Positions 56,310-60,037 of a stretch of DNA of 64,000 nt are shown in pieces. The position numbers and the translations under genes are program-made. The stretch is from Escherichia coli (GTDB lineage Bacteria > Pseudomonadota > Gammaproteobacteria > Enterobacterales > Enterobacteriaceae), in NCBI RefSeq assembly GCF_024223415.1, contig NZ_CP100500.1; one strand, 5' to 3'. Within the stretch, counting starts at the first letter, position 1. Each line of letters begins with the position of its first letter. A model generated the notes under the pieces. It made no database searches. It was not told the origin of the DNA and saw nothing but the letters and a program-made list of their open reading frames with translations.

Positions 56310-56636
56310 ATGAAAAGACGCCTTTCACTACTTTTTCTGTTATCTGCCCTGGCAGTGGGATGCTCGCAGCAAAAAGCTGATGAGCCCCGGCAATTAGTGA
56401 CGGTGTATCCACGATATCCGGAATATGCTGCAGCAAATTATATCAAGGGGCTGGTTGAGGTTAAGTTCGATATTGGTGCTGACGGGACTGTGACACGGAT
56501 CGTTTTTCTCCGCTCAGAGCCTCATAATTTGTTTCGTGATGAAGTGGTGAAGGCCATGGCGAAATGGAGATTTGAAAAGAATAGTCCCCGTCAGGGAGTG
56601 AAGAGACAATTTATCTTTACGCCATCACGTCCCTGA
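56310..56636 (+). CDS. Lipoprotein with TonB C-terminal-like domain (moron candidate)
   Basis: ATG at 56310: MKRRLSLLFLLSALAVGCSQQ...; C-terminal YPRYPEYAAANYIKGLVEVKFDIGADGTVTRIVFLRSEPHNLFRDEVVKAMAKWRFE fits TonB_C pattern. Confidence 0.6.
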   Translation: MKRRLSLLFLLSALAVGCSQQKADEPRQLVTVYPRYPEYAAANYIKGLVEVKFDIGADGTVTRIVFLRSEPHNLFRDEVVKAMAKWRFEKNSPRQGVKRQFIFTPSRP

Positions 56637-57000
56637 TGCTTCCAGGTAGAGAGGGGCTGGAAGCAGGAGAAAAATGAAAGAGCCAGCGGTTATATTTTTG
56701 TCATGGCTGACGAGAAATGATGGAAGAAGGCGTTGTATGCCACACAACGCCTCACTGTTCATTTCTTCTTTTTCTCTGGTGTAACCCGATGAATAAGAGT
56801 TGCACTGGTTTCCGATGAGATGGCGATATGCTCGGGCAAAGTATGCTGGCAGTTTTCCAACTGGTCAAAAATACCTGCTCTCGTCTGTTGCAATGCCTGC
56901 AGCATGCGGCGGCAATGCGCCTTTGCTTTTGCTAACCATCTTTCCTTACTCTATCAGTCGCTGCGTGAACTCATCATGGAATACCAGGTAAATGCGGATG

Positions 57001-57252
57001 TTATCGGTTTTGGCTACGCAGCATAGTACAAAACGGACAGGTGCATCCCGGAATGGGGGAGGCGTCACATGTCCCTGTGATGGTTGTTCCGGGTAATGCA
57101 CTGTGTGGGGCATAAAAATGTCCGATAATTTTACTTTCTACCGCAGTTAGTTGATTCGTTGGTCCTGGTAGCACATTGGGCGAGGGTTTAAATGCCAGGC
57201 AACTGAAGGATGATGTTGCAAGGGAGATAGCGAGAATATTTCTGATTTTCAT
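57001..57252 (-). CDS. Small secreted cysteine-rich protein (moron candidate)
   Basis: From ATG 57252: MKIRNILAISLATSSFSCLAF... signal peptide; six Cys in mature part. Confidence 0.35.
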   Translation of the reverse strand: MKIRNILAISLATSSFSCLAFKPSPNVLPGPTNQLTAVESKIIGHFYAPHSALPGTTITGTCDASPIPGCTCPFCTMLRSQNR

Positions 57253-57403
57253 TTGATGATGCCTCTGTGTGAAATGACGGTAAACGACGCACTTGTGCCG
57301 GCACATAATAGCAAGCATCAGAATAGATCAGATTCGATTCTTGCTGTAAGTGATAATTATTCTCGTTTTTTTCGGGTCCTTTCCGGCGATCCAACAGGTT
57401 ACG

Positions 57404-57415
57404 GGGCGTCGACCT
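57404..57415 (+). other. cosN cohesive-end site (lambda-type)
   Basis: GGGCGTCGACCT, one mismatch from lambda GGGCGGCGACCT; flanking CTCGCG(C)GTTTTCGCTATTTATGAAAATTTTCCGG also matches lambda cos. Confidence 0.75.
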
Positions 57416-57627: not shown

Positions 57628-58137
57628 GTGGCTACGCAGACTGAAGTTGCCAGGCATTTGAGTCTGACCGATCGCCAGCTTCGCAGACTGCAGAAATTGC
57701 CGGGTGCCCCGATATCGAATAAGCGAGGGCAACTGGATCTGGATGCCTGGCGTGATTTTTACATATCGTATCTGAGAAGAAGTAAAAACGATGTGCCTGA
57801 TGGCGATAGCGAAGACGACTATGAGGAGAAATTGCTTATTGCCAGATGGGAACTGACAGCAGAACAGGCTGTTACACAGCAGTTAAAAAATGAGGTGTCA
57901 AAAGGAAAACTTATTGACACCGGATTCTGTATTTTTGCCCTCAGCAAGCTGGCAATGGCGTTATCCAGTACGCTTGATTCCATCCCTTTATCCATGCAAC
58001 GACAGTTTCCTGATTTAACACCGCGCCATCTTGACCATCTGAAAACCCTTATTGCGAAGGGGGCAAATCAGTGTGCGCGGGCAGGGGATAAATTACCGGA
58101 TTTACTCGATGAATATATCAGAGCAACAACTGAATAA
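57628..58137 (+). CDS. Terminase small subunit (Nu1-like)
   Basis: 169 aa; C-terminal region resembles lambda Nu1 (FPDLTPRHLDHLK... vs lambda FPELENRHVDFLK). Confidence 0.85.
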   Translation: MATQTEVARHLSLTDRQLRRLQKLPGAPISNKRGQLDLDAWRDFYISYLRRSKNDVPDGDSEDDYEEKLLIARWELTAEQAVTQQLKNEVSKGKLIDTGFCIFALSKLAMALSSTLDSIPLSMQRQFPDLTPRHLDHLKTLIAKGANQCARAGDKLPDLLDEYIRATTE

Positions 58138-60037
58138 TATGATGAGTGCTGTCACAACAGCATTACAGCCCCTGATAAGGGCATTGCCGGTGACGGCAGT
58201 TGAATGGGCTGATCAAAATTATTATCTGCCTAAAGAATCTTCATATGGTGAGGGAGAATGGAAAACGCTGCCGTTCCAGATCGCCATCATGAACTGTATG
58301 GGCAACGATCTGATTCGCACTGTTAACCTGATTAAATCTGCCCGTGTTGGTTATACAAAGATGTTGCTGGGGGTGGTCGGGTATTTTATTGAGCATAAAT
58401 CCCGAAACAGTCTGCTTTTTCAGCCCACGGATTCTGCCGCTGAAGATTTTATGAAGTCTCACGTGGAGACGACGATTAGGGACGTGCCATGCCTGAAAGA
58501 CCTTTCCCCATGGCTGGGTCGTAAACATCGTGATAATACCCTCACGCTGAAACGCTTTTCATCGGGCGTCGGTTTCTGGTGCCTGGGCGGCGCTGCCGCC
58601 AAAAACTACCGTGAAAAATCCGTGGACGTGGTCTGCTATGACGAACTCTCATCGTTTGAACCTGATGTTGAAAAAGAGGGCTCGCCAACCCTGCTGGGGG
58701 ATAAGCGTATTGAGGGCTCTGTATGGCCAAAATCCATTCGCGGCTCGACGCCTAAAATCAAAGGCTCCTGCCAGATCGAAAAAGCCGCTAACGAGTCGGC
58801 ACATTTCATGCGTTTTTATGTGCCCTGTCCGCACTGTGGGGAGGAGCAGTATCTGAAATTTGGTGATGATGCCTCGGCTTTCGGTCTTAAGTGGGAGAAG
58901 AATAAGCCAGAAAGTGTTTTCTACCTTTGTGAGCATCATGGCTGTGTGATCCATCAGTCTGAGCTTGACCAGAGTAACGGGCGGTGGATCTGTGAAAACA
59001 CGGGGATGTGGACCCGTGACGGTCTGACGTTTTTCAGCGCCCGGGGTGATGAAATTCCGCCGCCGCGCTCCATCACTTTCCATATCTGGACGGCGTACAG
59101 TCCGTTCACCACCTGGGTACAGATAGTCTATGACTGGCTGGATGCACTGAAAGATCCCAACGGCCTGAAAACCTTTGTGAACACCACGCTGGGCGAGACC
59201 TGGGAAGAGGCCGTGGGCGAAAAACTCGATCACCAGGTACTGATGGATAAGGTTGTGCGTTACACGGCGGCGGTGCCTGCCCGGGTGGTTTATCTGACGG
59301 CGGGCATTGACTCGCAGCGAAACCGTTTTGAGATGTATGTCTGGGGATGGGCTCCGGGAGAGGAAGCCTTTCTGGTGGATAAAATCATCATTATGGGACG
59401 TCCCGATGAGGAAGAGACGCTGTTACGTGTGGATGCGGCGATCAACAAAAAATACTGCCATGCAGACGGAACCGAAATGACCATTTCCCGTGTCTGCTGG
59501 GACATCGGGGGGATCGATGGCGAAATCGTTTATCAGAGGTCAAAAAAACACGGTGTTTTCCGGGTGCTGCCGGTAAAAGGCGCATCTGTCTATGGCAAGC
59601 CGGTGATCACCATGCCAAAAACCCGCAATCAGCGGGGCGTGTATCTGTGTGAAGTGGGGACGGACACCGCAAAAGAAATTCTCTATGCCCGTATGAAAGC
59701 CGCTCCCACGCCTGCGGATGAATCCACGTCGTATGCCATCCGTTTTCCTGATGATCCGGAGATTTTTTCGCAGACAGAGGCGCAGCAACTGGTCGCGGAA
59801 GAGCTTGTGGAGAAGTGGGAAAAAGGAAAGATGCGTCTGCTGTGGGATAACAAAAAGCGGCGTAACGAAGCGCTGGACTGCCTGGTGTATGCCTACGCGG
59901 CATTACGTGTGTCCGTGCAACGCTGGCAGCTTGATCTGGCTGTACTGGCAAAATCCCGGGAAGAAGAGACGACCCGGCCAACCCTTAAAGAACTGGCAGC
60001 GAAGCTGTCCGGAGGAGTGAATGGTTACAGTCGCTGA
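58109..60037 (+). CDS. Terminase large subunit (gpA-like)
   Basis: MNISEQQLNN...TAVEWADQNYYLPKESSYGEGEWKTLPFQIAIMN...; 642 aa. Confidence 0.92.
   Translation: MNISEQQLNNMMSAVTTALQPLIRALPVTAVEWADQNYYLPKESSYGEGEWKTLPFQIAIMNCMGNDLIRTVNLIKSARVGYTKMLLGVVGYFIEHKSRNSLLFQPTDSAAEDFMKSHVETTIRDVPCLKDLSPWLGRKHRDNTLTLKRFSSGVGFWCLGGAAAKNYREKSVDVVCYDELSSFEPDVEKEGSPTLLGDKRIEGSVWPKSIRGSTPKIKGSCQIEKAANESAHFMRFYVPCPHCGEEQYLKFGDDASAFGLKWEKNKPESVFYLCEHHGCVIHQSELDQSNGRWICENTGMWTRDGLTFFSARGDEIPPPRSITFHIWTAYSPFTTWVQIVYDWLDALKDPNGLKTFVNTTLGETWEEAVGEKLDHQVLMDKVVRYTAAVPARVVYLTAGIDSQRNRFEMYVWGWAPGEEAFLVDKIIIMGRPDEEETLLRVDAAINKKYCHADGTEMTISRVCWDIGGIDGEIVYQRSKKHGVFRVLPVKGASVYGKPVITMPKTRNQRGVYLCEVGTDTAKEILYARMKAAPTPADESTSYAIRFPDDPEIFSQTEAQQLVAEELVEKWEKGKMRLLWDNKKRRNEALDCLVYAYAALRVSVQRWQLDLAVLAKSREEETTRPTLKELAAKLSGGVNGYSR

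Follow-up and report, generated by a model that had tools for sequence, protein, structure and literature searches.

A conserved, unannotated gene beside cos of phage-21-type prophages encodes a predicted exported cysteine-cluster protein with relatives in zinc-limitation loci

The right part of a 64,000-nucleotide (nt) stretch of an Escherichia coli genome (RefSeq assembly GCF_024223415.1, contig NZ_CP100500.1; the whole stretch is called the window below) is the late region of a phage-21-type lambdoid prophage. Close to the cohesive-end site (cos) of this prophage, on the minus strand, lies a small open reading frame (ORF) which an earlier reading of the bare sequence, referred to here as the original prediction, had proposed to encode a small secreted cysteine-rich protein. 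Comparative analysis indicates that the ORF is a genuine conserved gene of phage-21-type lambdoid prophages, and we are highly confident that it is a real gene for an exported protein. The product belongs to a previously undescribed family of about 80 amino acids (aa), restricted to the Enterobacterales, in which the cysteine pattern C-x7-C-x-C-x2-C is invariant. The best overall explanation, to which we assign a probability of about 0.55, is that the small gene is a prophage moron derived from a zinc-limitation regulon.

Conservation of the reading frame

The length of the ORF is unremarkable, other ORFs of 68–105 aa being present in the same region; what raises it above chance is its conservation. 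A word-indexed search of 5.8 billion proteins returned full-length homologues with 58–76% identity in other E. coli prophages, Salmonella enterica and Citrobacter koseri. In codon alignments of the window gene with five homologues, the proportion of synonymous differences (pS) was 0.75–0.83 and that of nonsynonymous differences (pN) 0.17–0.23, with third-position differences prevailing (for example 49 vs 19 and 11 at the other positions). Among other homologue pairs dN/dS was 0.10–0.28. This pattern of substitution indicates that the ORF is under purifying selection.

Conservation at the DNA level follows the same boundaries. When the homologues were aligned with 200 nt of flank on each side, similarity ran from the Shine-Dalgarno (SD) sequence to the stop codon only. 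A purine-rich SD stands at the same distance in all homologues and is followed by a conserved ATCATCA(A/G)ATG, an arrangement that places the translation start at the ATG at 57252. A longer version of 105 aa, beginning at an ATG at 57318 (106 aa in some database entries, P0001), was considered and rejected as a mis-start, since the extension is unconserved and it is the internal ATG that has the SD before it.

The ORF was intact in all 35 E. coli-type viral contigs examined from IMG/VR and in all seven further sequences sampled (phage 21, Nissle 1917, an ST131 strain and four other genomes), so that every one of the 42 sequences checked carries it. The original prediction had allowed for a chance ORF, a reading ruled out by purifying selection together with conservation from SD to stop. 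Of 5426 complete E. coli genomes, 1222 (about 22%) carry the region at ≥95% identity. The exact protein was encountered on 220 contigs, and each of two close variants on 1000 or more.

The gene has escaped annotation in the records inspected. The NCBI Prokaryotic Genome Annotation Pipeline (PGAP) leaves it unannotated in all RefSeq genomes inspected, as does the curated phage 21 record (OL657228), while both call other small ORFs nearby. Among the hypothetical genes annotated close by are one of 48 aa at 56759–56905 on the minus strand and one of 40–61 aa on the plus strand (56820/56904–57026). These calls may be spurious, since the DNA downstream of the small gene is unconserved in two divergent prophage alleles (L004 and L013). 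Neither the peptide nor its DNA was found in the supplements of the ribosome profiling study of small genes in E. coli O157:H7 Sakai (PMC5597208).

A sceptical reading of these facts is that the ORF is incidental, arising from conservation of the cos flank or from coding on the opposite strand. Both annotations pass over it while calling other small ORFs beside it, and scans for a promoter and a terminator gave nothing convincing. Against such a by-product, homologues are found far from any cos, on the C. koseri chromosome, in a Salmonella island and on Klebsiella, Serratia and Pantoea chromosomes, and these keep the frame, the signal peptide and the cysteines despite saturated synonymous sites. 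In addition, no long plus-strand ORF runs across the region of the small gene, and the region has no Rfam match. We consider this explanation scarcely credible.

Predicted export and the cysteine cluster

The pre-protein has the features of a Sec substrate, as the original prediction had recognized in calling its signal peptide typical. Two basic residues (K2 and R4) precede a hydrophobic region from I6 to F16, and the mean Kyte-Doolittle hydropathy of residues 6–20 is 1.8. The N-terminal MKIRN and hydrophobic core lead to the site S-C-L-A↓F, and the pre-protein is predicted to be exported by Sec and cut by signal peptidase I between A20 and F21, leaving a mature protein of about 6.6 kDa with a pI of about 8.5. 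It contains five cysteines (C18, C62, C70, C72 and C75). C18 lies within the signal peptide at position −3 relative to the cleavage site, so the mature protein has four cysteines and not the six that had been reported.

In an alignment of 22 family members, A20, F21, C62, C70, C72 and C75 were invariant and M1, K2, G60, P66, G69, L78 and R79 nearly so, G60, P66, G69, L78 and R79 each being conserved in ≥90% of members. The four invariant cysteines are packed into 14 residues and include a C-P-x-C knuckle and a CxC. Upstream of them lies a conserved helix-like segment, E-S-x-I-x-x-x-F-Y-x-x-H. AlphaFold2 gave mean pLDDT values of 40 with 8 sequences and 59 with 22, and its models were not used for fold comparison; the 22-sequence model placed helices at residues 32–46 and 73–81 with low confidence.

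The position of C18 raises the alternative that the protein is an outer-membrane lipoprotein with C18 as its lipobox cysteine, and that it has a surface role in serum resistance or superinfection exclusion like that of Bor/Iss or Cor. The sequence S-F-S-C18 formally fits a loose PROSITE-type lipobox, C18 is invariant in the subgroup formed by the phage, Salmonella and Citrobacter sequences, and the neighbours in such prophages include the lipoprotein morons iss and bor as well as the TonB C-terminal-domain protein, called a lipoprotein in the original prediction. However, position 18 is C in that subgroup only and elsewhere is A, S, G, Q, V or Y, while A20 and F21 are invariant; the conserved feature is thus an A-x-A↓F signal peptidase I site. 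The residue at −3 of the putative lipobox is also S where L is usual. We dropped the lipoprotein reading once the distant homologues showed position 18 to be unconserved, and regard it as very unlikely.

No known family accounts for the protein. There was no match in Pfam, NCBIfam or PHROGs at E≤1, nor in PADLOC (including its anti-phage defence families) at E≤0.1, and six distant relatives likewise gave no usable match in these libraries. A profile search of the PDB found no relative, and 'hypothetical protein' is the sole name attached to all of the database entries. Two proteins of about 600 aa (P0034 and P0036), rich in asparagine and with a ubiquitin-like N-terminus, carry 4–5 repeats of the form P-[IL]-P-G-C-N-C-P-K-C-T-[NE]-L-R-N; the repeats have three cysteines each and closely resemble the C-terminal motif of the family, PGCxCPFCTMLR.

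Chromosomal relatives and the zinc link

When 1.84 billion cluster representatives were searched exhaustively with a profile, 30 proteins reached E≤1e-3. About 25 of these are about 80 aa long with the same architecture, and genomes were scanned for relatives with a 10-sequence alignment. Members were found in Salmonella (arizonae, diarizonae and some enterica), Citrobacter, Klebsiella, Enterobacter, Serratia, Pantoea, Kosakonia, Phytobacter, Rahnella and Superficieibacter. In E. coli the gene was seen only in prophages, next to cos. The exhaustive search yielded no member named as Pseudomonas; in P. aeruginosa, PA5534 is an unannotated protein of a Zur operon (PMC11761036, PMC10393844).

The chromosomal relatives recur beside genes of zinc homeostasis, in three independent settings. 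In Pantoea the gene is divergent from an operon encoding DksA-like, GCHY-1 (FolE2-type) and hexapeptide-repeat proteins, and abuts genes for CobW (COG0523), a Fur-family regulator and a cysteinyl-tRNA synthetase paralogue, a dksA2-folE2-cobW-zur cluster whose make-up matches that of the Zur-controlled zinc-sparing clusters of Pseudomonas (PMC11761036, PMC10393844). In the type shared by Klebsiella, Enterobacter, Phytobacter and Superficieibacter, one flank holds dihydroorotase-like, ALAD (HemB-like) and DAO genes, and the other a gene for a 417-aa AztD, the periplasmic zinc chaperone (PDB 6CMK, E 1e-279, in L015), followed by ZnuA-like, ABC-3 and ABC ATPase genes. In Salmonella arizonae and diarizonae the gene lies 93 nt downstream of, and on the same strand as, the gene for the 133-aa PliG (PDB 4DY3/4DY5, E 1e-57), and is followed by bor and an omptin gene. 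Experiments have established pliG as a Zur target in E. coli (PMC4219657), and in Salmonella it stands upstream of the small gene behind a perfect Zur-type palindrome.

Candidate Zur operators are concentrated in front of the non-phage genes. Over the 150 nt preceding each of 19 non-phage family genes, the palindrome TGTTATNNNATAACA was matched with at most one mismatch at 10 of 2584 positions, compared with 11 of 178152 elsewhere in the loci, and several of these 'background' matches themselves sit upstream of azt/znu-type genes or pliG. The same regions were scored, out of 22, against the published 23-bp proteobacterial Zur consensus GAAATGTTATA-N-TATAACATTTC (PMC4219657). Within 200 nt upstream, 12 of the 19 non-phage genes had a site of at least 15/22, rising to 19/22 in Kosakonia, whereas a site of 15/22 or better turned up in 4.7% of random 200-nt windows drawn from those loci. 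The four Salmonella pliG promoters scored 15–16/22, with a perfect TGTTATAGTATAACA core. The family in its chromosomal form is, judged by these sites, very probably Zur-regulated, and a link of the family as a whole to the Zur regulon is likely.

This control appears to have been lost in the mobile copies. No TGTTATNNNATAACA match with two or fewer mismatches occurs within about 2 kb of the window gene, the nearest being at 59838, and there is no Zur box at the divergent E. coli prophage alleles L004 and L013. Lacking a Zur box, the phage copy cannot be assumed to share the zinc regulation of its chromosomal relatives.

Several individual loci merit separate mention. In L016, of the Serratia inhibens/plymuthica type, a Zur-like box of 15/22 (about 4958–4980) lies in a 300-nt intergenic region and is common to the small gene and the divergently transcribed genes of a transporter (SBP_bac_5, two BPD_transp_1 and two ABC_tran genes), which suggests that a peptide- or metallophore-type ABC importer may also be zinc-regulated. 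The Salmonella island (S. enterica subsp. diarizonae and arizonae; L011, L025 and L026) comprises, in order, genes for a SPATE-type autotransporter and an SDR protein, the Zur box, pliG, the small gene, bor, the omptin gene and a gene for a large SET-domain protein. It resembles an envelope- or virulence-type cluster, with at least the first two genes past the box under the Zur operator. The C. koseri copy (L010, 5046–5300) is chromosomal, about 170 nt downstream of icd, and has a Zur-like box 40 nt 5′ of its ATG. The icd gene is the integration gene of phage 21 and e14; the C. koseri copy may be what is left of an integrated element, or represent the kind of locus where the phage acquired the gene. 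A member of the Klebsiella variicola/quasipneumoniae type with 40% identity (L018, L078 and L079; P0019) is found in a mobile-element-like context, with a SocA/Panacea antitoxin, an SLT transglycosylase and a TOBE protein, and on IMG/VR viral contigs; it is a second instance of a mobile copy with no Zur operator.

The cos flank and the genomic neighbourhood

The features of the region are collected in Table 1. The late region runs in the order Q antiterminator, class II holin, lysozyme, spanin, small ORFs, TonB C-terminal-domain (TonB_C) gene, cos, Nu1 and gpA. The small gene is antisense to this late operon, between the lysis/iss/TonB_C genes and cos, in the orientation of iss and bor, and cos forms the boundary of its upstream region. 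Its place between the TonB_C gene and cos, its strand and its length of 83 aa are as originally described. The assignment of cos rests on the curated phage 21 record, which has cosQ 24–30 nt from the right end, and on the lambda right end, which aligns there. Across cos from the small gene, Nu1 marks the start of the packaging and head genes. The TonB_C gene is convergent with the small gene and would form a separate transcript, and is given here for context only. It is conserved in phage 21 (CPT_21_73) and Nissle 1917, and a phage-borne TonB_C domain could interfere with TonB-dependent receptors.

Table 1. Features of the small gene and its surroundings in the window
Feature	Position	Strand	Description
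Complete gene	57001..57252	-	83 codons plus stop; ATG start, TAA end; pre-protein MKIRNILAISLATSSFSCLA (signal peptide) followed by FKPSPNVLPGPTNQLTAVESKIIGHFYAPHSALPGTTITGTCDASPIPGCTCPFCTMLRSQNR (mature part)
Shine-Dalgarno sequence	57262..57266	-	AGAGG, 9 nt 5′ of the ATG; read off the sequence
Signal peptide, residues 1–20	57193..57252	-	n-region MKIRN, h-region ILAISLATSSF, c-region SCLA; predicted
Mature protein, 63 residues	57004..57192	-	Variable N-terminal linker, conserved predicted helix ESKIIGHFY, C-terminal cysteine cluster
Four-cysteine cluster	57028..57069	-	C62-x7-C70-x-C72-x2-C75, within the motif G-T-C-x3-P-x2-G-C-x-C-P-F-C-T-M-L-R
Fur-box-like 7-1-7 palindrome	57351..57365	.	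Between the gene and cosQ; TGATAATTATTCTCG on the plus strand; possible operator
cosQ and cohesive end	57374..57415	+	cosQ GGGTCCT at 57374–57380 and 12-nt cohesive end GGGCGTCGACCT at 57404–57415; phage 21-type cos
TonB C-terminal-domain protein gene	56310..56636	+	Pfam TonB_C, E 2.6e-13; annotated by PGAP and in the phage 21 record
Terminase small subunit Nu1	57628..58137	+	Phage 21 type; Pfam Phage_Nu1, E 1e-18; PGAP

A Fur-box-like palindrome separates the small gene from cosQ. The extended palindrome of the window matches 14 of 19 positions of the 19-bp Fur consensus, and those of phage 21 and L013 match 15/19; a score of at least 14 is expected by chance in 0.7% of 170-nt segments. In L004 the palindrome is perfect (TGATAATAATTATCA), and the right end of lambda has a perfect TGATAATGATTATCA at the same place. 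Since the palindrome is present with or without the small gene, it is a conserved feature of the cos flank and its link to the gene is uncertain; it may belong to the cos flank and have no operator role. Its general form, TGATAATnATTATCA, is found just inside cosQ at the right end of lambda-type genomes, lying about 37–51 nt from the right end in lambda (L038), at about 4866–4880 in L004 and at about 30–48 in phage 21 (L003). The literature on cosQ that we searched does not describe the palindrome, and the N15/cos paper is silent on it.

Possible functions

The small gene is absent from lambda, occupies the same slot with other neighbours in L004 and L013, and has chromosomal homologues outside phages, all of which characterize a moron. 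It would be dispensable for the phage life cycle, since lambda does without it. The original prediction of a small secreted cysteine-containing protein in a moron position is borne out by the antisense orientation next to cos, shared with iss and bor, and by the non-phage homologues. Of the roles then offered (toxin, inhibitor or lysogenic-conversion factor), the last fits best, given the ties of the family to Zur boxes and zinc starvation, and we lean towards a moron that benefits the host. The nearest parallels are Bor/Iss and other lambdoid morons, which share its niche, with the lysis cassette on one side and cos on the other, and its orientation, bor being next downstream of the small gene in the Salmonella island. 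Bor and Iss differ in being lipoproteins of about 97 aa (Pfam Lambda_Bor), whereas the small protein is a non-lipoprotein of unrelated sequence, and its expression in the lysogen is presumed.

The course of events that we favour is as follows. An ancestor of the phage-21 type would have captured a copy of the Salmonella/Citrobacter type, the subgroup that shares the signal-peptide end SSFSCLAFK. The captured copy would have been kept as a moron, uncoupled from Zur and expressed from the cos-proximal region antisense to the late operon, giving lysogens an extra and differently regulated dose of the factor. The 63-residue mature protein would be released to the periplasm and act there in a zinc-limitation or host-stress response. 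There it might capture or hand over Zn(II) or another thiophilic metal through its clustered cysteines, the CPxC knuckle and the CxC. Direct metal binding is favoured as a mechanism because the packing of four invariant cysteines into 14 residues resembles a metal site and because periplasmic zinc-capture proteins are typical Zur targets; on these analogies we propose it tentatively, at clearly less than even odds. Disulfides that stabilize a fold normally join distant segments and do not close small local loops.

The main rival of metal capture is that the protein does not bind metal and is a disulfide-stabilized periplasmic protective factor or inhibitor. Like PliG, it would be induced when low zinc signals the host, its cysteines would form two disulfides, and it would neutralize a host or competitor protein that attacks the envelope, or modulate a periplasmic enzyme or sensor. 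The position of the Salmonella gene, co-oriented 93 nt downstream of pliG and behind the same Zur box, speaks for such a role, as do the envelope-defence neighbours (bor and omptin in Salmonella, iss/bor in E. coli prophages), the oxidizing periplasm, the basic mature protein with its pI of 8.5 and the histidine-based chemistry of known zinc binders. Against it, CxC and CPxC within 14 residues give only small loops, atypical of disulfides that stabilize a fold; there is no homology to a known inhibitor family in Pfam or the PDB; and many members adjoin genes for zinc transport or zinc chaperones, not defence genes. We judge this alternative doubtful. PliG itself, the periplasmic inhibitor of g-type lysozyme (E. 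coli ycgK; PDB 4DY3), is exported by Sec, as is predicted for the small protein, and a Salmonella PliG homologue was deposited as 'Gifsy-1 prophage protein' (4DY5), so that both pliG and the small gene can be prophage-borne. PliG differs in having a 133-aa PPC fold and shows no sequence similarity to the small protein, a 63-residue mature peptide with four cysteines (Cys4).

Metal capture by the small protein has its closest functional models in ZinT, AztD (PDB 6CMK), PA4063 and Zcp/DUF4198, which are small-to-medium periplasmic proteins induced by zinc limitation. ZinT is a periplasmic zinc-trafficking protein (PMC4219657), and AztD, PA4063 and Zcp are described as Zur-controlled periplasmic zinc-capture proteins. 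The family shares with them the vicinity of aztD-aztCBA and the Zur boxes. These proteins differ in using mainly histidine ligands for zinc and in having solved, unrelated folds, whereas the small-protein family has four cysteines, no histidine-rich segment and no detectable homology to ZinT-type proteins, and its phage copy is without a Zur box. A bolder reading, which we think rather unlikely, is that the family forms a novel class of Cys4 proteins that capture zinc or another thiophilic metal in the periplasm as part of the zinc-starvation response of the Enterobacterales. Its phage copy, freed of Zur and perhaps under the Fur-type palindrome, would then have spread through E. coli (Nissle 1917, ST131 and APEC included), a species with no copy of its own on the chromosome.

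Two further likenesses deserve note. MerP-type proteins, which are small thiol-based metal binders of the periplasm, have a Sec signal, a mature protein of about 60–70 residues and a CxxC able to keep its thiols for a soft metal. They differ from the small protein, which has no HMA/MerP match in Pfam, is predicted (at low confidence) to be helical where MerP is beta-alpha-beta-beta-alpha-beta, and has a Zur context in place of MerR. Heat-stable enterotoxin b (STb) is made as a small Sec pre-protein with four cysteines in the mature part and is encoded on mobile DNA.

The resemblance in size, Sec signal and cysteine number to STb, together with the prophage moron slot, is what might suggest a secreted toxin, enterotoxin or bacteriocin-like peptide serving as a virulence moron. 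But the spacing of the cysteines, clustered here in 14 residues, differs from that of STb. There is no match to an enterotoxin or any other toxin family in Pfam or NCBIfam at E≤1 or in PADLOC at E≤0.1, and no immunity, partner or export gene adjoins. The gene is also present in the probiotic strain Nissle 1917, and the chromosomal relatives, each a single gene, belong to zinc-homeostasis loci of plant and soil enterobacteria that are non-pathogenic. The toxin option of the original prediction accordingly falls away, and we hold it to be highly improbable.

Returning to a moron derived from a zinc-limitation regulon, a number of observations weigh against it or against parts of it. Periplasmic thiols are normally oxidized by DsbA, and histidines, not Cys4, serve as ligands in the known Zur-regulated zinc binders of the periplasm. 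The window copy scores at best 11/22 for the Zur consensus in its 200 nt of upstream sequence, the mode of the null distribution, and the Rahnella copy and the mobile-element copies of Klebsiella (L018, L078, L079) are likewise without a Zur box. The Fur-like palindrome that might have replaced Zur is also found in lambda, which has no homologue of the small gene. A promoter search had been advised in the original prediction; a consensus scan upstream of the phage copy found no convincing sigma-70 promoter, and a terminator scan with RNA folding downstream found no terminator. A minority of alleles in the protein database are frameshifted or truncated (P0003, P0004, P0006, P0012 and P0013), and the AlphaFold2 models, with their low pLDDT, are unreliable.

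Significance

As a lysogenic-conversion moron encoding an exported host-fitness factor, the small gene would be of a kind already known. What is new is that the gene was missed in the annotation of a model phage and of more than 1000 complete E. coli genomes, that its family has no characterized or named relative, and that this family is tied to Zur boxes, pliG and azt loci, with control lost in the mobile copies. A conserved, predicted exported protein is thus missing from the annotation of phage 21 and of some 22% of complete E. coli RefSeq genomes, including those of the probiotic Nissle 1917 and of pandemic ST131. The predicted Zur regulon of Salmonella, Klebsiella, Enterobacter, Citrobacter, Serratia, Pantoea and their relatives gains an undescribed family, and in Salmonella the small gene is placed in one operon with pliG.

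If the protein captures zinc, or protects the envelope, when the host starves bacteria of metal, a temperate phage would be spreading a countermeasure to nutritional immunity. Should it prove to be of a Cys4 capture class, a temperate phage would be disseminating a metal-acquisition factor by which lysogens resist nutritional immunity.

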